DNA of 64,000 bases from an uncultured archaeon. GTDB taxonomy: Archaea > Nanobdellota > Nanobdellia > Woesearchaeales > UBA583. The DNA is taken from contig CAKZOW010000117.1 in the NCBI GenBank assembly GCA_937138345.1, forward strand, positions 37,572 through 101,571. The letters are read 5' to 3'. A program made the translations under genes and the position numbers. The notes beneath the pieces were generated by a model that saw only the letters and a list, made by a program, of their open reading frames with translations, had not been told where the DNA came from and ran no database searches. Below, piece after piece: positions 5,470-59,600 of the stretch. Positions within the stretch are counted from its first letter, which is position 1. Each line of letters starts with the position of its first letter.

Positions 5470-5555
5470 AATTTAATTTTTAATAAGTTTATAAAATAGG
5501 GAGGTAAAATAATTTACGCTGTTAAATATTTAAAACCCTCCCTGATGAAAAATAG

Positions 5556-5627
5556 AGCCAATGGTAGGAATCGAACCTACTTACTACTAAGATTGTAACC
5601 TAGCGCATTCCATAATGCTACATTGGC
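5556..5627 (-). tRNA. tRNA (72 nt) with apparent anticodon ACA (A34); isotype uncertain, Cys-decoding if genuine
   Basis: Cloverleaf derived by hand: acceptor GCCAATG/CATTGGC, D-stem GCAT/ATGC, anticodon stem CTAGG/CTTAG with loop TTACAAT, T-arm GTAGG-TTCGATT-CCTAC, discriminator T. Confidence 0.6.
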
Positions 5628-8985: not shown

Positions 8986-9325
8986 AATATTAATTTTTGT
9001 AATAGACCCAGAGAATTAACCACAATATTGTAGCTCTTAGCATCTCAAGGTCTAATGATTTGAAAATAAAGGTTTTAAAACGATGCAAATGGATATATCG
9101 CTTCCACAAGCCGAGTTCTTTACTAGTCGGTTTCCTCAATAACCTCAAGGGTTATCAGCACGTCAGTAAAGCTTACATCGTTTTTAAAACTCTAGGGGGT
9201 CTTACCCCGTCAAGATAAGACCGGTGGAGTTAAGGAAGGGAGGATGTCCAATGTTAACATATACAACGAAATAAATATAATGTTTTATTGAAAAAAATTG
9301 AAAAAAAATTTCGTATCTTTACAGT

Positions 9326-10198
9326 ATGAAAGGAATATACGGAATAACAAATGCAGTAAACGGTAAAGTCTATGTAGGGTCTAGTAAGTCTATCTCTAGA
9401 AGATGGAAGGAACATAGAAAAATGCTAAGAGGTAATATTCATCACTCTAGTCACTTACAGTACTCTTGGAACAAATATGGTGAAGAAAACTTTACTTTTG
9501 AAGTTATTGAAGAAGTAGAGGATGTAGAGAGAATCTTTGAAAGAGAGGCTCATTGGATAATAGAATGGAATACTCTAGATGCCAAGTACGGTTACAACAT
9601 GTGCCTACCAAACGGAGGAGCAAAAAGAGAAGAATCTATACAAAAATTAAGAGACCACTGGAATGTAACAGTACCTCATAATTACATAGGTTGTCATAAA
9701 GAATACCTAGAAATGAAGGCTAAAGGGTATGAGAAGGTAGGTATGAAATGGTTAAAGAAGGATAGGGTTAAAGGATTTAGCCGTACTAAAAGAGCAGTAG
9801 ACCAGTACGACTTTAATTTCACTTTAATAGGTTCTTACGATAGTATAATAGATGCTGCTAGAGCTACAGGTTTATCAGACAAGATAGGTGGTTCTTGTAG
9901 AGGAGATAAGAAGTCTTGTGGTGGATTCTATTGGAAGTTTAGAGAAGAGTCCTTAGAGGAGCTTAAAACGCGTGTACAAATAAAAGATACTAAACTGATG
10001 TGCGGGATTACTCAAGTAAAAGTATACGAATACCAAGGGAAAAGAAGTCTACATAAGAAAAATTTCGATACTTACAGAAAGAACAAAGCTATAAAAATGG
10101 TAGAAGTATACATGGTACCATCCAAGATAGAGAGGAAGAGATTAACACCAGAACAAATCAGTATATCTAACTACAAATATCTAGAAACACTTAATTAA
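9326..10198 (+). CDS. GIY-YIG family homing endonuclease (free-standing)
   Basis: N-terminus GIYGITNAVNGKVYVGSSKSISRRWKEH carries the GIY...YVG motif with the conserved Arg and Glu; the C-terminal half is basic and DNA-binding-like. 290 aa. Confidence 0.8.
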   Translation: MKGIYGITNAVNGKVYVGSSKSISRRWKEHRKMLRGNIHHSSHLQYSWNKYGEENFTFEVIEEVEDVERIFEREAHWIIEWNTLDAKYGYNMCLPNGGAKREESIQKLRDHWNVTVPHNYIGCHKEYLEMKAKGYEKVGMKWLKKDRVKGFSRTKRAVDQYDFNFTLIGSYDSIIDAARATGLSDKIGGSCRGDKKSCGGFYWKFREESLEELKTRVQIKDTKLMCGITQVKVYEYQGKRSLHKKNFDTYRKNKAIKMVEVYMVPSKIERKRLTPEQISISNYKYLETLN

Positions 10199-11582: not shown

Positions 11583-11880
11583 AAATATTAAAGTAGGAAG
11601 TAAAGTTAGGACAGATGCTCCTTTCACTTTCGAAGGTAAAGCAAGTACAGATTATAAAAATATTAAAGCGACTCCTAGTTGTGGATGTACAGGTGCCACA
11701 TTTAGAGTACTAAGAAATAGTCAATGGCAACCTTCAACAAGGGTGGCAGAAGGCGAAGCCTTTAGAGTTACAGGTAAGTTGAATAACGTACCTACTAATG
11801 GATCTGTTACTAAAAAAGTGACTATTACGGCTACGGGATTGGCTCCTATTCCTTTACTATTCACAATGTATTTAGTATGA
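11566..11880 (+). CDS. DUF1573-like protein
   Basis: 104 aa. Contains PSCGCTGATF, resembling the SCGCT signature of DUF1573 (a Bacteroidota family, recalled from memory). Confidence 0.4.
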   Translation: MIFKSKNIKVGSKVRTDAPFTFEGKASTDYKNIKATPSCGCTGATFRVLRNSQWQPSTRVAEGEAFRVTGKLNNVPTNGSVTKKVTITATGLAPIPLLFTMYLV

Positions 11881-12749
11881 TTTTTCACGCAGATACTCAT
11901 TCCTATTACAATGGAGATGAAAAATACTTAGGCGTTACTTCTACAATAGGTAAAATGAAACAACCTACTGATTGGGATCAGATAGCAGAGAATTACGTGA
12001 ATAAAAAAACACGTAGAGAATTGTTAGAGGACCTAGCTAAAAAGTGGAAGATTACTTTCAGACAAGCTAGAGAGAAGTGGGGTAATGAAGAGTTTACAGG
12101 TCCTTGGATTAGAACTGTCTGGAAAGATAAATCAGAAAGAGCATTAGCAGGTGGTAGTTTCTTCCATGATTGGAAAGAGATACAAGATTCTGATACTTGC
12201 TTCTACAACCCAGTTGTAAATAACAAGAAGACTCTTTTAGACCTGAATGAGTTAACTGATGGTACTTACTTAGAATTAGGAGTATACGCACATCAGTACT
12301 ATACTTGTGGACAAGTAGATAAGATTAAATTTGAAGGAAAGTACTTTGATATTTCTGATTACAAAACAGATGCAGAGAAACCTTCAACAGAAACTAAGGC
12401 TTATTGGAATAGTAATACAGGTAGAAGTGAGGTAAAGAAGTTTATATCTCCCTTATCACATATACCAGAAACTAATTACTACAAACATGCCTTACAGATG
12501 TCTACTTATTCTAGGATGTTAGAATTATACAAAGGTTATAAGTGCAGGAGTTTGACTGTGAAGTATGTACACACAGAATATCGACATCCCTTACAAGCTG
12601 GAGATGATTTAGTTATACATGAAGAACCTGAGTTCGATAGAGTACGAGTATTCTTAGGGTTAGAAGATATTGAATTACCTTATTTAAAAAAAGAAGCAGA
12701 AGCTATCTTAAAATACAATAGAAATGCCTACAGACAAAAAAACCGATGA
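11877..12749 (+). CDS. PD-(D/E)XK nuclease, RecB/Cas4/YqaJ-like
   Basis: 290 aa. GQVDKIKFEGKYFDISDYKT supplies the D...(D/E)xK motifs, followed by ALQMSTY (the QhxxY motif of RecB-family nucleases). Confidence 0.55.
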   Translation: MIFHADTHSYYNGDEKYLGVTSTIGKMKQPTDWDQIAENYVNKKTRRELLEDLAKKWKITFRQAREKWGNEEFTGPWIRTVWKDKSERALAGGSFFHDWKEIQDSDTCFYNPVVNNKKTLLDLNELTDGTYLELGVYAHQYYTCGQVDKIKFEGKYFDISDYKTDAEKPSTETKAYWNSNTGRSEVKKFISPLSHIPETNYYKHALQMSTYSRMLELYKGYKCRSLTVKYVHTEYRHPLQAGDDLVIHEEPEFDRVRVFLGLEDIELPYLKKEAEAILKYNRNAYRQKNR

Positions 12750-13569
12750 ATATTACAAGCGACTAGATATAATATCTGCTAAAAAGTTTTATGCTGGACG
12801 TGATTCTTGTATAAATTCTTCGCAATATCTAGGATGGAATGGTATGGCTACTAGTATAACGGATTCAACTGTTTCATCAAAAACAAAACTAATAGGAGGT
12901 ACTTTTATACAAGAAAGTCCTTATATGGTGCAAATATGTAAATCAAACAAAATGCAATCAACATTATTTTTAGACGTAGATAATACATTGATAGTGTCCA
13001 AAGATGGTTCACTGTTTCCAACAGTAGATAACTGGGTATTCAAAGCAGGTATTTTGGAAACTTTGATTAAGAAAGTCAGGGAGTATGACCAAGTGATTCT
13101 AGTAACTAATCAGGGCGGTGTAGATGCAGGTTTCAAAACACCTCAAGAAGTAGAACGCTATATCAGTGAAGTTTGTCACGGATTGGAAGTAGTTACTAGT
13201 ATTCAGGCGAAAACATTCATTGCGTATATAAATGAGGACAGAAAGCCAGTATTAGGTAATTTCATCAAGGATTTAACTAGGCTTAATGAGTTAACTCACT
13301 TAGAAGAGTATGCAGGACTTAACTATGATGCTAAAGTGAATGTGTTTGATAACATTAATCTTAATCAATCTACAATGGTAGGAGATGCTTCAGGATTAAC
13401 TAGAGTATTAACTAAGAAAGGTAAATTTGTTAGATTAGGAAAAGATTTAGAGATAGCGGAAGAAGATGAAGGTTATATCGTTAAAAAAGACTTCTCAGAT
13501 TCAGACAAATTATTTGCGGAGAATATGGGAGTATTTTATCAAGATATTGAAGAATTTTTAAACAAATAA
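12724..13569 (+). CDS. HAD-superfamily phosphatase (subfamily IIIA / polynucleotide 3'-phosphatase-like)
   Basis: 281 aa. LFLDVDNTLI is the DxDxT motif I; VILVTNQGGV is the TNQ motif typical of HAD IIIA enzymes (GmhB, Pnk phosphatase). Confidence 0.6.
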   Translation: MPTDKKTDEYYKRLDIISAKKFYAGRDSCINSSQYLGWNGMATSITDSTVSSKTKLIGGTFIQESPYMVQICKSNKMQSTLFLDVDNTLIVSKDGSLFPTVDNWVFKAGILETLIKKVREYDQVILVTNQGGVDAGFKTPQEVERYISEVCHGLEVVTSIQAKTFIAYINEDRKPVLGNFIKDLTRLNELTHLEEYAGLNYDAKVNVFDNINLNQSTMVGDASGLTRVLTKKGKFVRLGKDLEIAEEDEGYIVKKDFSDSDKLFAENMGVFYQDIEEFLNK

Positions 13570-13571
13570 AC

Positions 13572-13850
13572 ATGGATATTTATACTAAGAAGTGTACTAA
13601 AGCAGAAATTCAAGAGTTATTTGATAATCTTCCTGAAGAACCAAACTGGAAAGTAGTTACTCCTGAAAGACCTTGGATGTATATATATGATAAGTCGAGA
13701 CACATTTACGTAGTCAATGAAGAAGTAGCCCAACAAAACGCTTCAGAAATGTACTGGTTTTTATCTAAAGTTGATAAATCAAAAGTACATTATACCAAAG
13801 AATACAATCCTGAAAAAGCTTTAGCAAGTATTAACTCTACAGAAGTATGA
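13572..13850 (+). CDS. hypothetical protein
   Basis: 92-aa ORF with ATGA-type coupling to its neighbours. Confidence 0.45.
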   Translation: MDIYTKKCTKAEIQELFDNLPEEPNWKVVTPERPWMYIYDKSRHIYVVNEEVAQQNASEMYWFLSKVDKSKVHYTKEYNPEKALASINSTEV

Positions 13851-15145
13851 TAGATCCGATGTTAAAAGAATTTGGATACGAATTAGGAGAAGTACTTTCT
13901 AAAAAAGATATAAGTACGAAAAGACTGGAATGTAATAATAAGATGAGAACACTTGGATATGAAACACCTAGTACAGTCTACTATTTTCATGATCCATTAA
14001 GTCATTTTTCTACAGGTTCAATGAGATTATCCTTTGACAAAGATATGAATGAAATTTATCATAAATTATATAAAATGGACATTTACAATCAAAAAATCCC
14101 TACATACAAAGTAGGTACAGAAGGTTTAGAGCAGACAGGAGAAATGGGTATTCCTTTAGTAAGAGGAAGTAAAGATTCTCCAGGTCAAAAAGGAGATGAT
14201 TTTGATATAGATAAACCTTTAACTGAAAATGAAAAATTCCAAGTAATGTCTGCCTATGGTAAAAATTTTGAAGATTTTTTGATGAAATCTAGTAAGATGA
14301 TAATTCCTGATATTACAAAGGATAAGCCTGTAGCTAATACAGGTATTCCTGGTAAAGGGGGTGAGAAGTTTACAGTTAAATTTAGTAAAGATATGTTTAA
14401 CGCAGTTAGATTTCCCACAGTTACACCTGATAACCCTAGTGAGTATGCTTTAGCGATGCTGGCTAATGGTCTACATATTTACAAGGATGGTGAATGGCGA
14501 GAATTACCTTTAAAACCAGAAGAAGCGTTCGTATCTAAAACTAACGTTGAAACTAAATTAGGTGATAGGTATACAGATAGTGTTAACGAAAAAAATTATA
14601 TATATGAAGGGTTTTGGGTAGAAAGTTATAAGTCTATAGAGAATATGCCTGATGCAATACTTTCCTTAAATAAAGATGTAAGACGTACTTATGTACCTGA
14701 AGAGTTGGGTACCTTTTGCTTATGTCCGGATACTAATAAATTCTATGAATGGAAAGGTCGTTGGGTAGAATTTTTTGAATTCGAAGTAGAGTTGAAAGAA
14801 CATCCAGGATATAAGGTGTTTAGAGATAAAGTAAAAGAAGGTAAGTGTGAACTTGGTATAGATAATCCTCAACTAAAAGAATCAGAAGGTAAGTTACCTT
14901 ACGAATTAGAATGGGGCTTTATAGAAGGTATGGCTAAGAGAATGCAAGCTAACAAAGGAAAGTATGAACCTTATAACTGGAAGAACAATAAGATACCAGT
15001 ACATAAACTCAAAGAAGCCTTATCTCGACACTTTATCGAAGTACAGAAAGGTAACTACGATGATGAAGGATTATATGGACATTTATATGCTTTGGCTTGT
15101 AATTCTATGATGATTATCGAACAGTTAAAAATGAAAGCTGTCTAA
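13847..15145 (+). CDS. hypothetical protein with C-terminal DUF5664-like (dATP/dGTP pyrophosphohydrolase-associated) domain
   Basis: 432 aa. The C-terminus YNWKNNKIPVHKLKEALSRHFIEVQKGNYDDEGLYGHLYALACNSMMIIEQL matches the pattern nW..g......A..RH......G..D.eSG..HLaha..N..f that I recall for DUF5664 phage proteins. Confidence 0.4.
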   Translation: MIDPMLKEFGYELGEVLSKKDISTKRLECNNKMRTLGYETPSTVYYFHDPLSHFSTGSMRLSFDKDMNEIYHKLYKMDIYNQKIPTYKVGTEGLEQTGEMGIPLVRGSKDSPGQKGDDFDIDKPLTENEKFQVMSAYGKNFEDFLMKSSKMIIPDITKDKPVANTGIPGKGGEKFTVKFSKDMFNAVRFPTVTPDNPSEYALAMLANGLHIYKDGEWRELPLKPEEAFVSKTNVETKLGDRYTDSVNEKNYIYEGFWVESYKSIENMPDAILSLNKDVRRTYVPEELGTFCLCPDTNKFYEWKGRWVEFFEFEVELKEHPGYKVFRDKVKEGKCELGIDNPQLKESEGKLPYELEWGFIEGMAKRMQANKGKYEPYNWKNNKIPVHKLKEALSRHFIEVQKGNYDDEGLYGHLYALACNSMMIIEQLKMKAV

Positions 15146-15728: not shown

Positions 15729-15800
15729 ATGGCTTTTTAGCCCAAATGGACGATGTTGTGCTGTTGTCGGTCGTTTTCTTTTTTTCGGCAGTAGCACAAT
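15729..15800 (+). repeat. related GC-rich imperfect inverted repeat (TTGTGCTGTTGTCGG ... CGGCAGTAGCACAA) with GGACGATGTTG motif
   Basis: Long imperfect hairpin with a T-rich loop immediately upstream of the DUF4326 gene. Confidence 0.5.
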
Positions 15801-15807
15801 TTTAATT

Positions 15808-16284
15808 ATGGATGTATCATTGAAAGGACTTGCACAAGAAATGCGAGAAAATTTATTAGAAGAAATTTCAAATTTTAAAAAGAAAATATACATGAATGGA
15901 ACAATAATTAATAATCCAAAACGAATAAAAAGACAATATTACAAGAAACTTCCACCCAAATCAAAATCAGTAACAAGACCTGGCAAGTGGGGCAATCCTT
16001 TTTTAATTGTTTTAGAGGATGATGTTTATTTTGTCAAAGATAAAAGCGGAAATTATTGGGGCAATAATAATGAAGGATATAAAACAAAAGAATTAGCAGC
16101 AAAAAAATCGGTTCAATGTTTTAAAGGCTATTTATCAGCTAAAGTAATGAAAGGCGAATTAAGTCTTTCAGCTTTTGACAATATTGACAATATAGCTTGT
16201 TTTTGTAAATTAGAAGAAACTTGTCACGCTGATATTATTATTGATTTTGTTTCTCAATATCGAAATGGTCAGACTTTTTTCTAA
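15808..16284 (+). CDS. DUF4326-family protein (NADAR/YbiA-related fold per the literature)
   Basis: 158 aa. Contains TRPGKWGNPF, ...KKSVQCFKGYL and IACFCKLEETCHADIIIDF, matching the DUF4326 hallmarks (WGNPF, then C.C....CH near the C-terminus). Confidence 0.65.
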   Translation: MDVSLKGLAQEMRENLLEEISNFKKKIYMNGTIINNPKRIKRQYYKKLPPKSKSVTRPGKWGNPFLIVLEDDVYFVKDKSGNYWGNNNEGYKTKELAAKKSVQCFKGYLSAKVMKGELSLSAFDNIDNIACFCKLEETCHADIIIDFVSQYRNGQTFF

Positions 16285-16345
16285 TGACCGACAATGCCTG
16301 CAACCGCAGCCGTATGAGCGGCTGTGAAATATGGACGCTGTTGCA
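16283..16345 (+). repeat. related GC-rich hairpin element (CAGCCG-TATGAG-CGGCTG) with flanking motifs GACCGACAATGC and GGACGCTGTTGC
   Basis: It shares the GAC(C)GACAATGC left motif with 18233 and the GGACG(A/C)TGTTG right motif with 15735 and 17121. Confidence 0.6.
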
Positions 16346-16390: not shown

Positions 16391-17071
16391 ATGAAAAACA
16401 CTTATTCAGATTTTTTAAATTTATTTAGTACTTTTTGTGTGGAGGTAGGTCTGACCGAAAACCATGCAAAGGAAATGATGACGACATTCGACATTCGTTT
16501 TGATTATATCGAAGCTTATGGAGACAATGAACAAGGCTTAGAATTAGCTTATAATTATTATAAAACAACTGTAATTCCTCACAAAGTAGCTGTTTTTAAA
16601 GAAGCTATGAAAATGGAGGACGCATTTAAAAGACAAAGAAAAGAAGATTTAATCGTTCAACTTCGTGACCATGACTTGTCTAAATTTTGCTTTGAAGAAC
16701 TTGCTTATGCCGATGTAGATTTTAAAAACTTTAAAGACAACCCAAAATGGGTTATAGATAATTTTAAAAAAAGTTGGCATCACCATAAATCAGTTAACCC
16801 ACATCATCCAGAATATTGGTTTGATGTAAAGAAAGACGGAACAGCAAATCCAATTAAAATTCCGACTCATTTTTTAGCTGAAATGGTTGCAGATTGGCGA
16901 GGTGCAGGGATTACTTATGGAAACCCTATTGGGTATTGGTTAAAAAAAAATTTACACACTTTTCGTTTTCATAAAGAAACGGCTATGGAGTTGGCTGTAC
17001 TTTTGGCTAAATACTGTCAAATAGAAACAAAACTAAAAGATGACAGTGATGAAGTTTTGTTTTGTGTTTGA
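16391..17071 (+). CDS. hypothetical protein (His-rich segment HHHKSVNPHHPEYW)
   Basis: 226-aa ORF flanked on both sides by GC-rich hairpin repeat elements. Confidence 0.55.
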   Translation: MKNTYSDFLNLFSTFCVEVGLTENHAKEMMTTFDIRFDYIEAYGDNEQGLELAYNYYKTTVIPHKVAVFKEAMKMEDAFKRQRKEDLIVQLRDHDLSKFCFEELAYADVDFKNFKDNPKWVIDNFKKSWHHHKSVNPHHPEYWFDVKKDGTANPIKIPTHFLAEMVADWRGAGITYGNPIGYWLKKNLHTFRFHKETAMELAVLLAKYCQIETKLKDDSDEVLFCV

Positions 17072-17080
17072 TGGTGCATA

Positions 17081-17374
17081 ATGTCTGGAACAATGCACGG
17101 TCACGGCTTTTGCCGTGGCTGGTCGATGTTGCTTTTATTAGAGGGCGTTTTCTTTATTTTTTTATTTATGAGTTTTAAAATCGGCGACAAAGTACAATAC
17201 TCTATATCATATTTGACAAAAAAGAATATACATTCAATGGATATTGTTTTAGCTGCCTTTGTTGTGGATGGATTTGATGTTTATTTTGGATGCGATAAAG
17301 AATTAAGATTAAAAAGAAAAGATGGCGTTTATATTTATGCGAACGCAAAAGATTTAGAGAAAATAATTGATTGA
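17081..17374 (+). CDS. hypothetical protein; annotated start probably too far upstream (true start likely Met near 17170)
   Basis: The first about 29 codons are read through the 38-bp GC-rich repeat at 17087-17124. The downstream part (MSFKIGDKVQYS...) has normal AT-rich coding character. Confidence 0.4.
   Translation: MSGTMHGHGFCRGWSMLLLLEGVFFIFLFMSFKIGDKVQYSISYLTKKNIHSMDIVLAAFVVDGFDVYFGCDKELRLKRKDGVYIYANAKDLEKIID
17087..17124 (+). repeat. 38-bp GC-rich repeat GGAACAATGCACGGTCACGGCTTTTGCCGTGGCTGGTC (copy 1), containing hairpin CACGGC-TTTT-GCCGTG
   Basis: Identical 38-mer at 18248-18285. GC content is far above the roughly 30% of its surroundings. Confidence 0.85.
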
Positions 17375-17691
17375 CATTTGTTTTAATTCAAGTACAAAAA
17401 AAAATTAAGAATATGAAACTTACAAAAAGACAAATACAAAAAATTAGAACAGCTCATAAAAAAGCATTGAGACTGGAGGAACTTTTATCTAGTGCAAGGC
17501 AAGATTTGTCTTTTGTTATTTCATCAATCACAAAAATAGAGGGTAATGTTGATTTTCTGCAAGGCGATGGTTTCGGTTTTACACCAGAAGTAGACAATGA
17601 TACACATATACCTGTTGATGAATTATTAAATTTTGCAGAAAAAGGAAGAGATATAAATATAGAGTTGGTATTAGATAATTTATCTATTTAA
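17371..17691 (+). CDS. hypothetical protein (start possibly at internal Met near 17413)
   Basis: 106-aa ORF. Confidence 0.45.
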   Translation: MTFVLIQVQKKIKNMKLTKRQIQKIRTAHKKALRLEELLSSARQDLSFVISSITKIEGNVDFLQGDGFGFTPEVDNDTHIPVDELLNFAEKGRDINIELVLDNLSI

Positions 17692-17795
17692 TGCCCTCTA
17701 ATGCTTAGCTCGGTGACTGGTGGTGACGCCTGTCACCGCTGGGCAATGAGCGTTCTTATTGTCGGCTGCTTCATTGCGCTAATGCTCGTTCTCAA
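17692..17795 (+). repeat. GC-rich hairpin element (GGTGAC-GCCT-GTCACC) with CTAATGCT direct repeats
   Basis: Hairpin at 17722-17737. The listed ORF 17701-17886 is probably an artefact of this element. Confidence 0.5.
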
Positions 17796-18232: not shown

Positions 18233-18247
18233 TTGACGACAATGCTA

Positions 18248-18285
18248 GGAACAATGCACGGTCACGGCTTTTGCCGTGGCTGGTC
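18248..18285 (+). repeat. 38-bp GC-rich repeat (copy 2), identical to 17087-17124
   Basis: Exact direct repeat. The upstream flank TGACGACAATGC resembles TGACCGACAATGC at 16283. Confidence 0.85.
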
Positions 18286-18399
18286 ATGGAGGATTGAAAA
18301 TGTATCTAAAGCAGGGTGGACCTATCACAGGAATTATGTACAATGGTCGATTAGTAAAAGACGTAAAAAAGTTTTTAAAAATATTTGAATTAATAGAGG

Positions 18400-19371: not shown

Positions 19372-19440
19372 ACCACTTTAACTCAGGGATAGAGTACCTT
19401 CATATGAAGGAAGTCGTAGGTTTGAGTCCTACAAGTCGTA
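19372..19440 (+). tRNA. non-canonical tRNA-like gene (69 nt). It has acceptor, D and T arms, a short variable loop, and an anticodon loop ATATGAA with apparent anticodon ATG
   Basis: Hand-derived structure: acceptor ACCACTT/AAGTCGT (one mismatch), D-arm ACTC-AGGGATA-GAGT, T-arm GTAGG-TTTGAGT-CCTAC. The anticodon stem CCTTC/GGAAG has a C-A mismatch and sits inside a perfect palindrome CCTTCATATGAAGG. The variable loop is only 2 nt. Confidence 0.35.
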
Positions 19441-19451
19441 CTACTTTACTA

Positions 19452-19525
19452 GCCTCCTTAGCTCAGGTGATTAGAGCACCTCACTTGTAATGAGGATGTC
19501 ACAGGTTTGACTCCTGTAGGAGGCT
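19452..19525 (+). tRNA. tRNA-Thr (anticodon TGT)
   Basis: Acceptor GCCTCCT/AGGAGGC, D-arm GCTC-AGGTGATTA-GAGC, anticodon arm CCTCA-CTTGTAA-TGAGG, variable loop ATGTC, T-arm ACAGG-TTTGACT-CCTGT, discriminator T. Confidence 0.8.
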
Positions 19526-19584
19526 CAATAAGTTTTAATATTTTCCTTTTTACCGTGCGTAGGTATTAGATAAAATATTTATAA

Positions 19585-19657
19585 TGCAGGATAGCTGAGT
19601 CGGTTTAGCACAAGATTCATAATCTTGAGTACGATGGTTCGAGTCCATCTCCTGCGT
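19585..19657 (+). tRNA. tRNA-Met (anticodon CAT; could be elongator Met, initiator, or Ile2 if lysidine-modified)
   Basis: Acceptor TGCAGGA/TCCTGCG (T1-G72 wobble), D-arm GCTG-AGTCGGTT-TAGC, anticodon arm CAAGA-TTCATAA-TCTTG, T-arm GATGG-TTCGAGT-CCATC. Confidence 0.75.
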
Positions 19658-19686
19658 CTAATTGTTAACAAACTAAATTAATTACA

Positions 19687-19938
19687 ATGAGTAGGTTACC
19701 GTTCCGTATAGTAATAGCAGGAATATTATTAGTATTACTACCTTTCTTATTAGGTACAGGTTATTTCACCCTTATACAGGGTAAGAGTGTAGGTGATCCT
19801 GTAAAGTTATATGAGATTCTAATTGGTCTTGGGATTATCTTTGGAGGATATTTTGCCTTATTTTTAATTGCTGTATCTAAAGGAGGTGACTGGATTAGAG
19901 ACTGGATTAACAGTGTGACTAAAAAAGAAAATGATTAA
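19687..19938 (+). CDS. small two-TM membrane protein (83 aa); holin-like or membrane-associated
   Basis: Two hydrophobic helices (VIAGILLVLLPFLLGTGYF and ILIGLGIIFGGYFALFLIAV) and a charged C-terminus. Confidence 0.5.
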   Translation: MSRLPFRIVIAGILLVLLPFLLGTGYFTLIQGKSVGDPVKLYEILIGLGIIFGGYFALFLIAVSKGGDWIRDWINSVTKKEND

Positions 19939-20059
19939 AGAATTTAAGTTACAAAGAATGTATCGATACATCAGATATAGTTAAGTGCAATTGATTATAT
20001 CTACGTTTACTTAGGTTAATTAGGTTCGAATCCTAGTAGTAAAATTTGTAACTTAGTAC

Positions 20060-20133
20060 GGATAATTGGTCTAGCTGGCTAAGACGCTATCCTGTCACGG
20101 TAGAGATCACGGGTTCGAATCCCGTATTATCCG
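20060..20133 (+). tRNA. tRNA-Asp (anticodon GTC)
   Basis: Acceptor GGATAAT/ATTATCC (perfect), D-arm GTCT-AGCTGGCTA-AGAC, anticodon arm CTATC-CTGTCAC-GGTAG, variable loop AGATC, T-arm ACGGG-TTCGAAT-CCCGT, discriminator G. Confidence 0.85.
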
Positions 20134-20148
20134 CTAAAATTAAATACT

Positions 20149-20433
20149 ATGAATCCAATAAAAGAATTTTTAAAAGCTAAAGGTACAGTAGAATTTGTTG
20201 CTGACGAGAATAAATGGGAGAAATACCCTATGCAGATTGTAGTAGAAGGAGAAGTTAAAACTGCTTTTATACAAGATGCTGATAAATCTCATAATGATGA
20301 GGAGCATGTATTAGTAGTACTACTTATGGTAGAGGGTAAAGTATTTAAAGTAGTAAAAGTTTGCCAAGCTCCAGTTACTTGTGAAATTGATTGGGATACA
20401 GTAACTTGTGCTACTACTATAGAAAGTATGTAA
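20149..20433 (+). CDS. hypothetical protein
   Basis: 94-aa ORF starting 15 nt after tRNA-Asp. Confidence 0.5.
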   Translation: MNPIKEFLKAKGTVEFVADENKWEKYPMQIVVEGEVKTAFIQDADKSHNDEEHVLVVLLMVEGKVFKVVKVCQAPVTCEIDWDTVTCATTIESM

Positions 20434-20592
20434 AATTTCTAACTCCTTACGATTATTCTAGGTTTATGTTTACCTTTGAGGTTTAATCTATTGTAGGAGT
20501 TAGTTTTTAAGGGAAAGTATGCAAGTGGTTAAAGCACGCGCATTGTAAATGCGTCACTTCGGTTTCAGAGGTTCGAATCCAAGTAGGCACAC

Positions 20593-20850
20593 ATGGAAAA
20601 GTTAGTAGAGAATGGTTTAGAATTTACTAGATACAATTGCTTAGAAGGGTATGTGGATTATACTCGTCTAAACGCAGGACATGATCCTAATAAAAAGAAA
20701 CCTTTTTCTACTTTAAATCTAATAGTAAACTGGTTACGTTTTAAAGGACATCCTTGGGAACTCTATGATACTAAAAGAGTTCGAGAGATGTTATCTAACA
20801 AGGATGGCTTTACATCAGAAGAACTTTATTTTTTAATTGATAACCGATAG
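20593..20850 (+). CDS. hypothetical protein
   Basis: 85-aa ORF sandwiched between the tRNA-like element at 20511-20590 and tRNA-Cys. Confidence 0.5.
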   Translation: MEKLVENGLEFTRYNCLEGYVDYTRLNAGHDPNKKKPFSTLNLIVNWLRFKGHPWELYDTKRVREMLSNKDGFTSEELYFLIDNR

Positions 20851-20921
20851 TCTACTCAATATTGGTATAGAGGTGGGTCTGCAAAACCTTCTTAATTCCG
20901 GTTCGATTCCGGAGATTATCT
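20846..20921 (+). tRNA. tRNA-Cys (anticodon GCA)
   Basis: Acceptor GATAGTC/GATTATC (one G-T pair), anticodon stem TGGGT/ACCTT with loop CTGCAAA, T-arm TCCGG-TTCGATT-CCGGA. The D-arm is slightly irregular. Confidence 0.65.
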
Positions 20922-20944
20922 CTATTCTTAATCAAAATTAAATT

Positions 20945-53241: not shown

Positions 53242-53633
53242 AGACTAGAAACTGGTTTCCAGAACATACGGAAATCTATACAACCCAAGGATGGGTAAAT
53301 ATTAGTATAATAGAGAAAAAAGACTTTTCATTAGTAGGATACGAAAGTGAAGAGATTGTTGAATGTAAATTAAAAGAATTTAATAAACATTCCTTTGAAG
53401 GTCCTATCCTTAGTTATAAAGCAAAAGATATATTTTTAGAAGGTCTGTATATAGAGAACTACATAACTAGATACAGAGCCACATTAGACCTACCTAAAAT
53501 AAGGTACTCACATTACAACGGTTATCTGTATAATATAGTCACAACTACAGGAAATTTTATTATCAGAAGCCTGAAAGGAAAACATAACAATAACGATTAT
53601 AATATAGTAAAATGCCAAATAAGTGTAAAATAG
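53235..53633 (+). CDS. hypothetical protein
   Basis: 132-aa ORF overlapping the start of the giant gene. Confidence 0.45.
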   Translation: MLKTRNWFPEHTEIYTTQGWVNISIIEKKDFSLVGYESEEIVECKLKEFNKHSFEGPILSYKAKDIFLEGLYIENYITRYRATLDLPKIRYSHYNGYLYNIVTTTGNFIIRSLKGKHNNNDYNIVKCQISVK

Positions 53634-56600
53634 AGGTTACTCACCCTTTACTTAAACAAGTAATTACTGGAGCAGATACAGTTGAAGAAATACTAACAGC
53701 TTTAAATACTACAGATAAGTTCTTAACTAGAGCTGGAAGGTCTATTAGTAGTAAAGACTTTGAGTTCCTAGTAACAGAAGAACAAGATATTGTAGTCAAT
53801 ATTGGAGGAATAGATGTACCTTTAGTAGAGTTCCAAGAATTCACAGATAAACCTATTCCAGTAATTATTCCTCAGATAATTATTCCAGAGGAAATCAAAC
53901 ACATTGATTCTGATACTACATTAAAGGAAGATAACTTTTCTGCTATTAAATGGGAATCAGGACTTGCTTTAGCTAATAAAGATACCGTAGGTTTTACTAA
54001 TGAGATTAGTCAAGAACAGCGTTCTACATTCAGAGGACAGTTGATGGAGAAGCTAACTACTCGTCCTAAAGCTAAATTGATTTTAATAAAAGATTCTGAT
54101 GCTAATTACTCTCAAACAGAAGAAGAAAGAGGTTTCAAAGCTGATGGTCATGTAGCTATAGTTGTAGAAAACTTTGAAGAAGGATTATCTTTAACTGAAC
54201 TACTAAAGAGAGTTCCTGACTACGCTAAACTCAATGGGAAACCTTTCTTACTCCATACAGAATTCTCTGCTAAGAATAATACTTTTGATGAAACAGGTTT
54301 TGGTAAACGTGACCATGAGAAACGCTTAGACATCTATACTGAGAAAACAGGTAAAACTAGAGAACAAGCTAAAGCGCACTTCGATAAAGAGTTTAGAGAT
54401 TGGAAAAGAGCTGCAACTGAAATAGAAGAAAACTCTTACACCGTCCTTGAGATAAAGTCTATCTCTGAAGGTAATATTGGTAAATACAATAAACACAAAG
54501 CTCCTCTATCTCCAGAGATGGTGAATAGAGTAAGCGAAATTGAGATTGTAGACGGACATGTATTTGTAAATTTTGACGAGACTTTACCTACTAAGGAGAA
54601 GATTAAAACTAAGGTAAGGGTAATTGGTAGTAAAGTAAGTAACCACGAGAAAGGAGTTCTATTCAAATTACTAGATAGTTATACTACCCAGATTCCAGAA
54701 GAGTTTGTAGCTTACTTAGTATTATTGTATGGTAAAAGAGTGTCATTGAAACCTAATAACTTATCATTCAAAAGAAAAGGAGATAAGATTCAAATCAGTT
54801 ATGACCAAGGAGGTAAAATATTCTCTATAAAAACAGACCAGAACTACAAAGATTTAGAACAAAGAAAAGAAATACTCAAGACCATCCTAGAGAACATTCC
54901 AAGAAGTATACCTTTTGATATGGTAATCGCCTCACAGAATGGAGATACTATTGATAGATACTTGTCTGAATTAAAAATCAATGATACAGACTTACGTGTA
55001 CCAGATGTAGATGATTTAGTAAAAGGTACTACTACTCTACAAGATTATTTACTAGATGCTGTATATCCTGTACAAATGGATACGAATCATTATAAGGTAA
55101 ACGGTCAGAAGCAATCCAGTTATAAACCAATCAATAGATATGCTTACTATAACATGGATGGTAAAGTACACAAAGACCTTAGTAGAGAACTAGAAACTAA
55201 AGTAAATGAGAAGTTCGAAGCTAGTGGTATAGATACTGTTATTCTTACTGAAGGTGAGATGCGAGAAAAAGCTGCTGAATGGAATAAGGAAGATGGTACT
55301 AACCATCCTGTTACATATGGGCGGTACAAAAATGGTGTAGTTTATATTACTAAAACAGCACCAAAACACGTAGTATTAGAAGAAAGAATACATGCTCTTA
55401 CAGTAGCAGCTATTAAAGAAGAAGATTTAAATGAAAAAGCTGAGATAGTACAAGTAGTTAACGAACTTAGAACTCGTGTAGCTAAACTAGAAAACGGGGC
55501 TTTAAAAGATAAATGGAATGCGACTATTGGTACTGATGGTAAAGTTACTGTAGAACATGTAGCAGAACTTACTGGTAGAGGTATGTCAGATCCTAATATG
55601 GTAGAGTTCTTAAAGAAAAACCAATTAGGAGATTCATTCTATGCTAAGATTAAAAACTGGATAAATGCTTTAATCTCCAAAGTAACAGGTGTAACTTTCT
55701 ACGATACTATAGAAGGATATACTTATAAGTTAATGGATACTAAGATTGAAGAAGATTTAGATGAAGATATATTTGATCCATTAGGAGGTTTCTTTTCTTA
55801 TGAACAATTAAATGAACCTCCTGTAAAAGATATTCATGACCAGTTGAACTACCATTTCCTAAATATATTCTTGAAAAAGAAAAAGATAACATTATCTGAT
55901 TTATTTGAAAAAGATTTACCTAAAGGTATATTCAAAGAGTATAAAGCTCAGTTAAAGTCAAAAGCTAAGACAAAGTTTTTAGTAAAAGATGAAAAAAGTT
56001 TTGATAAATGGTCTAAAAAATTCTTTGCTAAGGAAGAAGTAGAAGAAGTTTCTGAAATTGAAAGACTAGAATCAGATGATTTGTCTGAAGTAATTAACGA
56101 AACTCACTCGACTAAAAGTTCACAAGAAAGGATTAGCAAGAAGATTAAAGCAATTATAGAAACAATGCCTAAAGTTGATGAGAATGGTAAAGCTGTTCGT
56201 TATCCTTCAGGTATTCCTATGGCTGCTAATATCTCTAGTACTCTTTACAAACTTATCAAGAATTATGGAGGTGTAATCGACATCAACGTACTGGCTAAGA
56301 ATATAGCTAAAGCTGCTTACAAGAAAGATGATAAAAATAGGAATGTAGCCAATCAAGATGATATTTTAATACTAGCACTTGCTTTAGGTATTAAACCGGA
56401 TGGTAGTTATCAGAAGACTCCTTTGATGTACTCTTTTGTAACAGGTATGCAGTTGTTTGAATTACCTGCTTATAAAGCAGTAGAAAGTGATATAGCTTCT
56501 TTTGTATTTAAGGAAAGCGGTACTAACACTAAAGCGCTTAAAAAGGAATGGGATAGTGCTTTTAGAGAGAATAGGTCAGGAAGATTTGATAAAGACTTTA

Positions 56601-59600
56601 ATCCTACAGAAGAATATGTAGCAGCAATTAGACAAGCTGTAGATAACAAAGATAGATATACTCTATTCGAGTTACTTAACATCGAAACAGACGCTAATAC
56701 TACACTTAACTGGCAGTTTATAGAGTCTAGGATATTTGGGTATAGACCTCGTAATATAGTAGGGTTAAAAGGCTTTGATAAAGCATCTAACAACCCATTA
56801 GCTTCTCCTATATCTGATATTTTCAGTTCAGGTGAGAATAAGAACTTACTAAAGGAAGCTGCTGTTTTATCTGGTCATAGAGATACTGTAATGTACTTGA
56901 ATAGTGCAGGTAAAATGCAGAACAACTATAGTTTACCTAACTCTGTCATCATGATGAATAGTATTTTCCAAACCTATACCAGCCTATTAGCTAAGGATGG
57001 TGAAGTCGCCGGACATGAGGAGTTGTTGTATGGTATGCTTAGGAATTTTAATTCTCCTAAGTTTAAGGCTACTGATTTGTATAAGATGTTAACGCATCCT
57101 AATCCAGCAAGAAGGTATAAGATTGAGATTATTAACGTGGATGGCTATACTGATTCAAGAAAAGGTGAAGACATAAAAGATACTACTTCTAAGTTACAGA
57201 ATTTCAGTTGGTTACGTCAACAACACTTAAACTGGAAAGAAGGATTTGTAGAGTTTATGCGTACTGGAACAGGTAGTTCTGCTTGGGGTTACAGAGTAGT
57301 AAGTCCTAAAGGTAAAGCTCATAAATGGGTCACAAATGTTAAAGAAGCTCAGACTATATTTGGTAACTTTCTACTAGGAGAATTAGCTCAGTGGCAAAAA
57401 GTAAAAGATAAGACCAACTACAAATACGACCCGTTTACAATAAGCGCTTATTTAAGCGAAGACTTAAAAACGAAGTTAAAAGAAATGGAATTCGATGGTA
57501 CTCTTGGAGAGTATACAGACGAAGTTTTAGCAGAATTGAATGAAGCTTTATCAGGTGTATTTAGAGATACAGAACAACTCTATGCAGATTACGGGATAAC
57601 TGATTTAGAAAAAGTAGGAATGTTTGGTGTTAATTACAAGATACACCAGATATACTCTACTATGATGTTCTATGGTGATTTAAACTGGTTTGGTAAAAAA
57701 TTCTTTAAGCGTTCGCCACTAGCTGTTTCTACTGGTACAGGTAATACAGTTACAGAAGGATTATATGAAACGATTACACATGATTTAAAATCTGTATTTA
57801 CACCTAATACTAAAGGCTCGCTTACAGCTAAAGTATTAGCAGTAAAAGATATTAAAGCAGATTATAGTCCTAAAAAGTTAAAAGAATTCAAATCTAATGT
57901 AGCTAGTTCTGTTGAGAGTTATTTTAAAAACTCTAATATACCTGATCACTTGAAGAAAGATTTTAAAGATGCTTTAATGGAATCTTTGAACTCTTATAAC
58001 GATATCGAAGTAGCAGATGGTCAGTCTTGGGTATCTTTAGATTTAGCTAAATCTATGTTAGTTACTATAGACAAATGGGAGACTAATGGTTTACAAAAGA
58101 TGTATGACTATGAGGTAGCTTTCCTTAAAATGTGGAAACAAGCTCCTGAGAATCTTAAAGAGAGATACCGTGGTAATAATGATATTAATCTAGAATCAGC
58201 TTTAGCTAAGTTAAAACTAACTGAATCTGATATTAAGTTACTATTGAATAAACCTAAAGGAAACTGGACTTCTATGAAGTGGCAGTACTTCGGACCTATC
58301 AAGTCAAACGCTGATGTAGAGGCTTACAATCCATTAGTGTCACTTAAAACATCATTTGCTCCTATTATACCATCTGCTGTTGTAGGTACTAATGCAGAGC
58401 AGTTTATCGGACTTATGTACAAGGATGGTCATGATATCATTACGATTAAGTCTGCAATGAAAACAGGTATCGCAGAACATGGTGCTGCATCTTTAGCTCC
58501 ATTCTATACAAAGGATGGTATACAACAATTGTCTAATGAAGCTGACAGAGCTTATGAAATATACCTACCATACTTAAAAGAACAGTTAGAAACTAACACG
58601 AAAGTAAAGAAGGTGAATCTACTGGCGTCCCAGTTTAGAAAGTTACTTTATGCAGATACTTTAGTTCCTACTTTCGATGGAGATGCTTTTATAGGAAATC
58701 AATGGTTATCTCCAGATGTTGAAAAGTTATTCAATGAGTTCCTAAACATTCAAGAGCAGATAGTAGAAGTCCAAAAGGTTAAACTACTAGAAGAACTTAA
58801 ACTAGAAAGAATAGGTAAAGAGTATATCATTACTGATAGAACTCACCTAATTAAAACTATAAAAGATGAATTAGAACGCCAAGACAAAGGTGACAAAGGC
58901 CTATATGATTTGCTAGAAGCAATTAATAAAGACGATAATAATTTTGATTATTCCGGTGCCACACAAATGTTGGAGAACTTTGTAGGAGGTTTAATTAAGA
59001 AGAGATTGTCTAATATCAAGCTTCCAGGTAATGCTCTTATTCTTAAAGCATCTCCGACCACAGAAAAACTAGATTCAGAAGGATTTGGATTGAAATATTA
59101 CGGTTATGAGAAAGCTGAAGAATTTGAAGGATTTTGGACAAGAAAAGAGGTAGCTAAAGATACAGAAAAAGTTTATCTATTTGGAGATAATACAGCCGAT
59201 AGAGCAACTAAATATGTTCCTTCAAAAACTCAAGCTGTTATTAGAGGTTTAGATAATGCTATAGGTATAGATACTAAAAAGAATAGAGGTACAGGAAAAG
59301 ATTCTTATTTCACAGATAAAGATTTTGATGAGTTTAAAGACCAAGTAGATAAAGCTATTCAAACTGCTAAAGATAGTGGTAAAACTATTGTTATACCTAA
59401 AGATGGTATTGGTACAGGAAAAGCTATGCTTGCTAAGAAAGCTCCTAAACTTTATAAGTACTTAACAGAAGAGTTAAATAAATTAAAAGAACCTAAAGTA
59501 ACAAAAGCAGAAGGTAAAATATCTATATCTCAAGGAGAGTTCGGAAACTTACTTAAAAGAAAGGATGTAATAGAAAATGCATTATCAAATAGAGAAGATG

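Follow-up and report, generated by a model that had tools for sequence, protein, structure and literature searches.

A stand-alone DUF4326 gene and a divergent, cysteine-free DUF4326-like module of a giant predicted virion RNA polymerase in an uncultivated crAss-like phage

Introduction

Why should one phage carry a DUF4326 sequence twice, once as a small gene of its own and once, in much altered form, inside a giant protein? The question is raised by a 64,000-nucleotide stretch of DNA (assembly GCA_937138345.1, contig CAKZOW010000117.1, positions 37,572 to 101,571), referred to below as the window, in which a stand-alone DUF4326 gene is followed, far downstream on the same strand, by a giant open reading frame (ORF) with a DUF4326-like segment. 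The initial annotation, made from the letters of the sequence, had proposed that the two are copies of one putative anti-defence module with an anti-ADP-ribosylation or NAD-related role. Many phages and giant viruses carry DUF4326, yet it is without experimental function, and no biochemistry or other experiments on it were found in the literature that we searched. The explanation that we consider the best overall, and on balance likely, is that the free gene encodes an active-type DUF4326 enzyme, while the fused copy is a cysteine-free module within a virion RNA polymerase-helicase. What is new here is a member of a known, uncharacterised family together with a cysteine-less variant fused into such a protein.

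The stand-alone gene

The free gene and the features within it are as follows (aa, amino acids).

15808-16284, plus strand: stand-alone DUF4326 gene with an ATG start, 158 aa and the stop codon within these coordinates, from ORF calling
15937-16242, plus strand: DUF4326 domain, aa 44-145, from the Pfam PF14216 match
15988-16002, plus strand: WGNPF motif (aa 61-65), with no variation across the family alignment
16198-16227, plus strand: C131-F-C133-KLEET-C139-H140 cluster (C-x-C-x5-C-H), in invariant alignment columns

The strand opposite 15808-16284 is closed to ORFs. The 158-aa product matches Pfam PF14216 (DUF4326) with E=1.2e-9 and a score of 39.1 bits, where the curated cutoff is 25, over profile positions 4-81 of 82, and it matches PHROG 464 with E=2.3e-12. 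An identical protein is present on 7-8 metagenomic contigs, and 26 other metagenomic homologues, 28-68% identical to it by BLASTP, all carry PF14216. Across 27 homologues there is no variation at P49, V55, R57, K60, W61, G62, N63, P64, F65, A130, C131, C133, C139 and H140, and the combination of R-x-x-K-W-G-N-P-F with A-C-x-C-x(4-5)-C-H, present in full in the stand-alone protein, is also invariant in eight homologues from sequenced phages. The family signature that the initial annotation had quoted, WGNPF with C.C....CH, is therefore correct. Together with the DUF4326 proteins found among its structural neighbours (below), these matches bear out the earlier assignment: the stand-alone protein is a genuine and intact member of DUF4326. 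The locus thereby adds a clean, intact DUF4326 gene from a crAss-like phage, a group that has no other case among the 78 sequenced-phage DUF4326 matches.

The start of the gene is less certain. With the first ATG, the ORF has 28-36 N-terminal residues beyond typical members, which are 90-120 aa long and have 'KRIQRKR..' as their first residues, and this extension forms a helix in the AlphaFold model; a 28-aa N-terminal helix of this kind is unique to the stand-alone protein among its DUF4326 relatives. The closest relatives, P0002 and P0003, are without the helix and start later, at a position that corresponds roughly to residue 37, with stop codons directly 5' of the start in P0002. Because these relatives begin there, M29 (nucleotide, nt, 15892) may be the true start. 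Removal of the N-terminal 28 aa leaves a PF14216 score of 39.9 bits.

Relatives in sequenced phages include gp57 of Mycobacterium phage Charlie, WAX24454 of Bradyrhizobium phage ppBjS10J-1 and CC2_144 of Aeromonas phage CC2, annotated as 'NrdA.1-like', with which the stand-alone protein has the invariant residues and the predicted fold in common. Like them, it is encoded by a small accessory gene amid phage genes of DNA and nucleotide metabolism. Identity to any sequenced-phage homologue is 24-31% only, and, unlike these relatives, the stand-alone protein has a subfamily-specific beta-hairpin inserted after the NPF motif. A megablast search of the locus against sequenced phages gave no match. 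The mycobacteriophage proteins (Charlie, Tortellini) have an added N-terminal Cys-rich extension, C-x2-C...C-C-P-D-C-T-H, with a zinc-ribbon-like look, and in both phages the DUF4326 gene has a DNA methylase on one side and an HNH endonuclease on the other.

Predicted fold of the free protein

An AlphaFold2 model of the stand-alone protein, built with the 27-sequence alignment, has a mean predicted local distance difference test score (pLDDT) of 90.6. In order along the chain, this small alpha/beta protein consists of two short strands, the NPF loop, the subfamily-specific beta-hairpin, a long helix, a strand (128-131), the Cys loop and a helix (140-152). A Foldseek search of the viral structure library BFVD placed phage DUF4326 proteins at ranks 1-4 (E=4.9e-6 to 2.4e-3), and most of the named matches among the top 25 are DUF4326, giant-virus proteins among them.

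The family has been described by Iyer, Burroughs and Aravind as a clade within the superfamily of rhodanese-phosphatases and a predicted cysteine-dependent enzyme of the phospho-transfer or phosphatase type, and it is reported to be fused to NADAR, Macro and SLOG domains, with the NADAR fusions in some viruses (PMC9503650, PMC7824862). In amoeba viruses, according to a 2025 preprint, the domain follows, on the C-terminal side, homologues of ORF83, an anti-Avs protein that is predicted there to be an AMP-binding phosphoribohydrolase. DSSP puts C131 at the end of beta-strand 128-131 and H140 at the start of helix 140-152, which resembles the arrangement of the superfamily (protein tyrosine phosphatases, PTP, and dual-specificity phosphatases, DSP; Cdc25/rhodanese), in which the cysteine stands at the C-terminal end of a strand and is followed by a loop and the N-terminus of a helix. 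Unlike the C-x5-R loop of rhodanese-phosphatases, the loop here reads C-x-C-x5-C-H (x4 or x5 in the family), with no Arg after it. Burroughs and Aravind are also said to have described, in NAR Genom Bioinform in 2023, a clade of RapZ-C, DUF488 and DUF4326 with predicted roles in DNA-end processing. A weak, non-significant Pfam match to DUF488-N3a ('Active DUF488-N3 subclade') falls exactly at the Cys motif (E=0.03-0.04), in line with such a clade; no link between DUF488 and RapZ was found in the literature searched.

The initial annotation had grouped DUF4326 with the NADAR/YbiA fold and had suggested superposition on YbiA. The stand-alone protein had no match to the NADAR profile (PF08719) when Pfam was scanned with a threshold of E<=1 or of E<=10, and a Foldseek search of the model against 350,542 chains of the PDB returned no NADAR or YbiA structure and nothing below E=0.4. 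Its non-significant matches included, as hints toward the rhodanese-phosphatase clade, Yersinia PTP (1ypt, E=1.3, and 1lyv, E=1.7), Cdc14 (1ohc, E=2.8) and RapZ (5o5q, E=3.6), at ranks 6, 10, 20 and 33; sequence searches of the PDB (phmmer and profile searches) gave no relevant match. The earlier grouping is mistaken. NADAR is a domain to which DUF4326 can be fused, not one to which it is related: the two co-occur by fusion only and belong to different fold families.

The giant protein

The second sequence lies in the giant ORF, whose features are listed here.

53612-64000, plus strand: giant ORF, which runs past the end of the window and is 4124 aa long in full (P0028)
59120-59470, plus strand: DUF7831 module, aa 1837-1953 (Pfam E=7e-29; PHROG 2072), absent from the relative P0029
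59792-59806, plus strand: DYDID motif, aa 2061-2065, of the DFDxD/DxDxD type; DFDID in P0029
61898-62413, plus strand: internal DUF4326-like module as a whole (N-terminal half, insert, C-terminal half)
61898-62038, plus strand: N-terminal half of the module, aa 2763-2809, with V-x-I-D-K...Y-S-N-P-F and then the helix AKDMYKDWLNGSNNP, from hhalign
62039-62275, plus strand: 79-aa insert splitting the module, absent in P0029, with no family match and beta-rich in a low-confidence model
62276-62413, plus strand: C-terminal half of the module, aa 2889-2934, ...KLDKTEFVSTSTDNHASILIDKIKDR, aligning to L-x-G-K-x-L-A-C-x-C-x5-C-H-A-D-V-L-L-E-L
62714-64000, plus strand, continuing past the window: start of a C-terminal superfamily 1 (SF1) helicase of the Dda/RecD/Pif1 type (Pfam AAA_30, AAA_19 and PIF1 on both P0028 and P0029)
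62813-63847, plus strand: 345-aa intein with Hint and LAGLIDADG homing endonuclease domains (Pfam Hom_end_hint, 6e-22; Hom_end; LAGLIDADG_3), with boundaries taken from P0029

From the full length of 4124 aa, the end of the gene is expected near nt 65986. An exhaustive search recovered the full-length protein and a single relative, P0029 (3963 aa), which is 52% identical overall and syntenic, with gene order conserved in its locus L019.

The giant ORF is located after the structural genes. In the window, the terminase gene (22598) is followed by portal (24682), major head (28375) and virion protein genes, several ORFs of 800-1600 aa and the giant ORF (53612), so that, as in the crAss transcription block, it comes among several very large ORFs. 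The terminase is 24-29% identical to crAss-like phage terminases among the matches listed (pig, macaque and human gut; Azobacteroides phage), the rest of that tally being mainly phages of Flavobacterium, Cellulophaga and Bacteroides, and the window, which has a G+C content of 33%, gave no match to sequenced phages at the nucleotide level. As judged from gene content and order, the window derives from an uncultivated crAss-like phage.

The region of about aa 2009-2360 matched, in tblastn searches, g066 of phage phi14:2, annotated as 'Catalytic RNA polymerase subunit', with E=9e-6 over 338 aa. It also matched genes of crAss phages annotated as 'putative RNA polymerase', with 41-45% identity around AGEDYDIDKK and E values of about 1e-6 to 3e-8. 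The DFDxD/DxDxD motif is given as the catalytic motif of the virion-packaged crAss RNA polymerase in a preprint (bioRxiv 10.1101/2020.03.07.982082), and this hallmark is also described in PMC7886860. When three parts of the giant protein were searched by tblastn against sequenced phages, the RNA polymerase core alone matched, the other parts being without relatives. The giant protein thus shares its DFDxD-type motif and its sequence similarity with the crAss virion RNA polymerase (phi14:2 gp66, the 'RNAPB'' of the crAss transcription block), and, unlike gp66, it has a DUF7831 module, a DUF4326-like module and an intein-bearing C-terminal SF1 helicase. We take gp66 to be about 2180 aa long, which would make the giant protein roughly twice its size.

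The additional modules are not fixed. DUF7831, of which there is no mention in the literature searched, is located just upstream of the polymerase DxDxD region and is missing from P0029, which alone has an AlkB-like 2OG-Fe(II) oxygenase (aa 2313-2539); modules are therefore swapped between the orthologous giant proteins. The helicase of P0029 matches PHROG 325 (Dda-like helicase), and the homologues of the helicase part are 520-aa Dda-like helicases. The intein sits in the helicase Walker A motif, GG/CLAKG...VTHN/TGKTS (slashes mark its ends), and the spliced GGTGKTS would match the uninterrupted GGAGKTS of P0029. On the strength of these similarities, the giant ORF is best described as a crAss-type virion RNA polymerase with accreted DUF7831, a DUF4326-like module and an intein-split helicase, an architecture which illustrates the modularity of the proteins of the crAss transcription block.

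The initial annotation had noted that the family occurs in counter-defence polyvalent proteins of phages; the giant protein, with its polymerase core, is not a generic protein of that kind. Phage polyvalent proteins, as Iyer, Burroughs, Anand, de Souza and Aravind are said to have described them in 2017, have a MuF- or portal-associated anti-restriction scaffold. By analogy, the giant protein resembles them in that it is probably delivered with the virion and strings together unrelated modules that are swapped between relatives. It differs from them in that its core would be an essential polymerase of early transcription and in that no recognisable anti-defence effector domain was detected in it.

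The internal DUF4326-like module

At 61898-61990 the giant ORF encodes, in its own reading frame, the peptide pointed out in the initial annotation, GAVNIDKGIYSNPFLGMADSKVAKDMYKDWL. This peptide turned out to be only a part of the N-terminal half of a longer module. About 100 residues downstream of it, the giant protein reads KLDKTEFVSTSTDNHASILIDKIKD, resembling the family sequence L-x-G-K-N-L-A-C-F-C-K-L-x-x-P-C-H-A-D-V-L-L-E-L-A-N, and the peptide of the C-terminal half, EFVSTSTDNHASILIDKIK, is found at nt 62351-62413, beyond the 79-aa insert. P0029, which is without the insert, has a compact module of about 95 aa, AIDVDRNEFKNPF ... AIIMFRDWLNGSKNP ... LVNPEFVSVNDNSHASVLADYV, and a narrow family hidden Markov model (HMM) places P0029 in that register with 8.7 bits.

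For the main profile-profile comparison, a two-sequence alignment of the giant protein and P0029, cut to the P0029 columns, was aligned by hhalign to the 27-sequence DUF4326 alignment. This gave a probability of 85%, P=5.8e-6 and a score of 35.9 over 74 columns, spanning template positions 16-106 of 110. In 300 column shuffles, the mean score was 11.0 (standard deviation, sd, 2.4) and the maximum 21.3. An independent target set, consisting of the eight sequenced-phage DUF4326 proteins, gave a score of 26.1 (P=5e-4, 76 columns) in the same register, the maximum of 200 shuffles being 18.0; both alignments thus top all of their shuffles by more than 7 sd. The position of the signal is equally specific. 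Among 115 like-for-like two-sequence windows along the whole P0028/P0029 alignment, those at the site scored 36.0, 33.9, 25.0 and 24.0, and unrelated ones at most 14.5; in the same scan against the independent set the site scored 25.9, 25.8 and 25.1, and unrelated windows at most 17.0. When both giant proteins were scanned with single sequences, in 175 windows altogether, the top five scores all came from the module site (best 28.4, background 11.3 ± 2.7).

The module keeps N63, P64 and F65, an aromatic residue at the position of W61, a basic residue beside R57, the helix A-x-x-x-[FY]-[KR]-x-W-L, as well as H140-A141 and the hydrophobic helix that comes next. It is without K60, G62, D142 and all three family cysteines, and contains zero cysteine in either orthologue. 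The residues common to both orthologues fall on family-invariant positions, namely N63, P64, F65, H140, A141 and the aromatic-x-x-W-L helix. The earlier statement that the internal copy lacks the Cys/His cluster therefore holds for the three cysteines, none of which is present, but not for the histidine, as His-Ala is kept.

Taken together, the profile comparisons argue that the internal module is very probably a true, very divergent homologue of DUF4326. The initial annotation, which had allowed that its internal match might be due to chance, was right in pointing to a real module and to one free and one fused copy, the second of which is very probably a true if degenerate relative; the segment that it quoted is non-significant alone and covers only the N-terminal half. 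We also considered whether the two copies are close paralogues and rejected the idea, as the stand-alone ORF comes no higher than 8th among 205 single-sequence windows searched with the module profile; since there is no specific similarity between the copies, a recent duplication is not involved. The fused copy is probably non-catalytic, because it has no cysteine of the presumed active site.

Possible roles and alternative explanations

According to the rhodanese-phosphatase prediction for DUF4326, the free protein would be a cysteine-dependent phosphatase or phospho-transfer enzyme, and it may act on a terminal phosphate linked to ribose or deoxyribose. In the phage, the likeliest substrate would be a nucleotide or a nucleic-acid end, and an ADP-ribose-derived product would be less likely, because the recognisable neighbours of the gene, both here (listed in the next section) and in other phages, handle nucleotide and nucleic-acid-end chemistry. 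Neighbours of homologues in other phages include DNA methylases, HNH, RusA resolvase, ligase, Rad52/NinB and DUF5131, and one sequenced-phage homologue is itself annotated as similar to 'NrdA.1'. The fused copy, in which the presumed nucleophile is lost, could serve as a non-catalytic structural adaptor, or one that binds a ligand or nucleic acid, between polymerase and helicase, and it may enter the cell with the injected giant protein, by analogy with crAss-like virion RNA polymerases. The free and fused copies probably do not share one activity. If the homology holds, they form a natural pair of active enzyme and pseudo-enzyme which could help to show what the fold binds. A more elaborate scheme, in which the fused, dead DUF4326 is an injected reader or decoy for the ligand, a ribose with a phosphate or a modified nucleic-acid end, that is later removed by the free enzyme, and is coupled to the Dda-like helicase, we regard as a long shot; if true, it would mean that an injected sensor or adaptor and an expressed eraser from one enzyme family operate at the very first moments of infection.

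The strongest rival explanation is the counter-defence role put forward initially, in which both copies would process ADP-ribose-derived phosphates or signals against host NADase or ADP-ribosyltransferase immunity, one dose being injected with the virion protein and the other expressed later. It can draw on two BFVD matches, one to a protein annotated as DUF2493/SLOG (rank 11) and one to a fusion described as 'NADAR domain with protein tyrosine phosphatase' (rank 19), and on a SLOG-family YAcAr gene three genes downstream of the homologue P0019. The window itself gives the idea no local support, as no Macro, NADAR, SLOG, Nudix, ART, Sir2 or TIR gene was found among the window ORFs scanned, and a NADAR-like stretch picked out by eye in P0029, after its AlkB-like domain, was rejected since it has no Pfam support. 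Moreover, the contexts of the closest subfamily are mostly DNA replication, recombination and modification genes, no experiment tying DUF4326 to defence systems was found in the literature searched, and the injected copy, lacking every presumed active-site cysteine, is unlikely to perform the same catalysis, which also makes two copies of one anti-defence activity unlikely. On this evidence we consider the counter-defence explanation doubtful. As a matter of annotation, the presence of DUF4326 alone is no evidence for anti-ADP-ribosylation counter-defence.

A second alternative concerns the internal module, which might not be homologous to DUF4326 at all, being instead a lineage-specific linker or an N-terminal accessory region of the helicase with NPF, W-L and H-A-x-V-L occurring by chance. 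A number of results weigh on that side. Pfam DUF4326 was not matched at E<=10 by the giant protein, by its segment with or without the insert or by the P0029 segment, and the segment quoted initially has no Pfam match of any kind at that threshold; against the HMM of the 27 homologues, the giant protein's own segment scores about 1 bit. On the uncut alignment, hhalign aligns the N-terminal 34 columns only, with 5% probability, because the local alignment is interrupted by the 79-aa insert. The reciprocal single-sequence test misses the stand-alone ORF (8th of 205, above), and the family profile scores 25-26 on the unrelated-looking DUF5662 neighbour, so that single-sequence scores of about 28-29 are only modestly above background. 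Structural confirmation is absent, the two-sequence AlphaFold2 model of the module having an unusable pLDDT of 46 and meaningless Foldseek matches. In addition, PHROG 325 aligns from aa 2989 of P0029 and takes in the module region. The module is known from two sequences only, itself and P0029, after an exhaustive HMMER search of about 1.84 billion representatives; a word-index search found no homologues of the internal segment, and scans of IMG/VR and JGI metagenome contigs no more relatives. These scans and a search with a module-plus-helicase alignment did not find a Cys-retaining intermediate, the latter search returning plain Dda-like helicases only and no bridging fusion.

Against chance stand the end-to-end alignment in the same register to two independent DUF4326 sets, which beats all shuffles, the sole high-scoring site in both window scans, and the coincidence of ortholog-conserved residues with family-invariant positions. 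Furthermore, stand-alone Dda-like helicases stop short of the module, with a query coverage of about 50%. Chance similarity therefore appears unlikely to us, and we retain the reading of the module as a degenerate DUF4326 domain.

The third alternative, slightly less likely still, is that the Cys/His cluster is a structural zinc site, the free protein a small nucleic-acid-binding or regulatory factor and the fused copy that same binding fold without the zinc: a metal site is possible given that the motif, C-x-C-x4/5-C-H, varies in spacing between subfamilies (C-x-C-x5-C-H here, C-C-C-x4-C-H in homologues from T4-like Aeromonas phages), unlike the canonical, fixed C-x5-R loop of PTP enzymes, and the family N-terminus is strongly basic (RIQRKRTKGW, with KRIKRQYYKK in the stand-alone protein), the mycobacteriophage homologues have their extra Cys-rich extension and no enzyme fold was significant in the PDB Foldseek search, but the invariant R57, K60, W61, G62, N63, P64 and F65 have the look of a ligand pocket rather than of a scaffold, the succession of strand-end Cys, loop and helix N-terminus in the model would correspond to the rhodanese-phosphatase active-site geometry, the published analyses cited above predict an enzyme, and the weak match to the 'Active DUF488-N3 subclade' coincides with the Cys motif.

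Gene neighbourhood and other features of the window

The free DUF4326 gene is flanked by hairpins and lies in a block upstream of a tRNA cluster and of the terminase and structural genes. The features around it are the following.

9326-10198, plus strand: GIY-YIG homing endonuclease gene, a recognisable gene of the block
11877-12749, plus strand: exonuclease gene, a recognisable neighbour
12724-13569, plus strand: gene for a polynucleotide kinase (PNK)-type 3'-phosphatase (PNK3P, E=1.6e-17)
13847-15145, plus strand: gene for a protein of 432 aa, the C-terminal part of which is a MazG-like dATP/dGTP diphosphohydrolase domain
15755-15800, plus strand: stable 16-bp hairpin in the spacer directly upstream of the DUF4326 gene (-19.3 kcal/mol, z=-2.8)
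16305-16326, plus strand: GC-rich 9-bp hairpin in the spacer directly downstream of the DUF4326 gene, with another hairpin and a T-run after it
16391-17071, plus strand: gene for a DUF5662 protein (Pfam E=4e-25)

The exonuclease, 3'-phosphatase and MazG-like protein genes stand in a row (11877-15145) and make up a set for nucleotide and nucleic-acid-end processing just upstream of the DUF4326 gene. NCBIfam gave no match for the stand-alone protein, the flanking DUF5662 and MazG-like proteins, the DUF7831 region or the internal segment. The N-terminus of the DUF5662 protein aligns with the C-terminal half of the DUF4326 profile at the hhalign score given above (P about 5e-4), LRDHDLSKFCFEE-LAYADV standing opposite LRGKNLACFCKLxxPCHADV, which may be due to chance or to remote kinship. 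Elsewhere, in the prophage-like lineage of P0019 (L009/L010), a DNA ligase is found near the DUF4326 gene in addition to the YAcAr gene mentioned above, and this is the sole neighbourhood seen that echoes the published association of DUF4326 with SLOG.

Further stable, GC-rich spacer hairpins are located on the plus strand at 17080-17140, 17690-17782 and 18237-18305, with z values of -2.4 to -4.3 across the set, and the copies at 17080-17124 and 18241-18285 share 93% identity over 45 nt. The spacer hairpins have no match in Rfam, nor are they T-run terminators of the classic kind. Mechanically called ORFs at 17081, 17701 and 18233 start within hairpins and are probably spurious. A GC-rich, structured-looking stretch (9188-9251) precedes the GIY-YIG endonuclease gene; the Rfam scan of the window yielded tRNAs only, with no group I intron at the gathering threshold. 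The tRNA cluster (19372-20922, plus strand) comprises Thr, Met, Asp and Cys(GCA) tRNAs, plus a tRNA at 19372-19440 seen by Rfam alone. Phages of the crAss-like group are known for suppressor tRNAs, and for a separate minus-strand tRNA at 5555-5627, assigned to Cys, ARAGORN gives an unusual anticodon, ACA.

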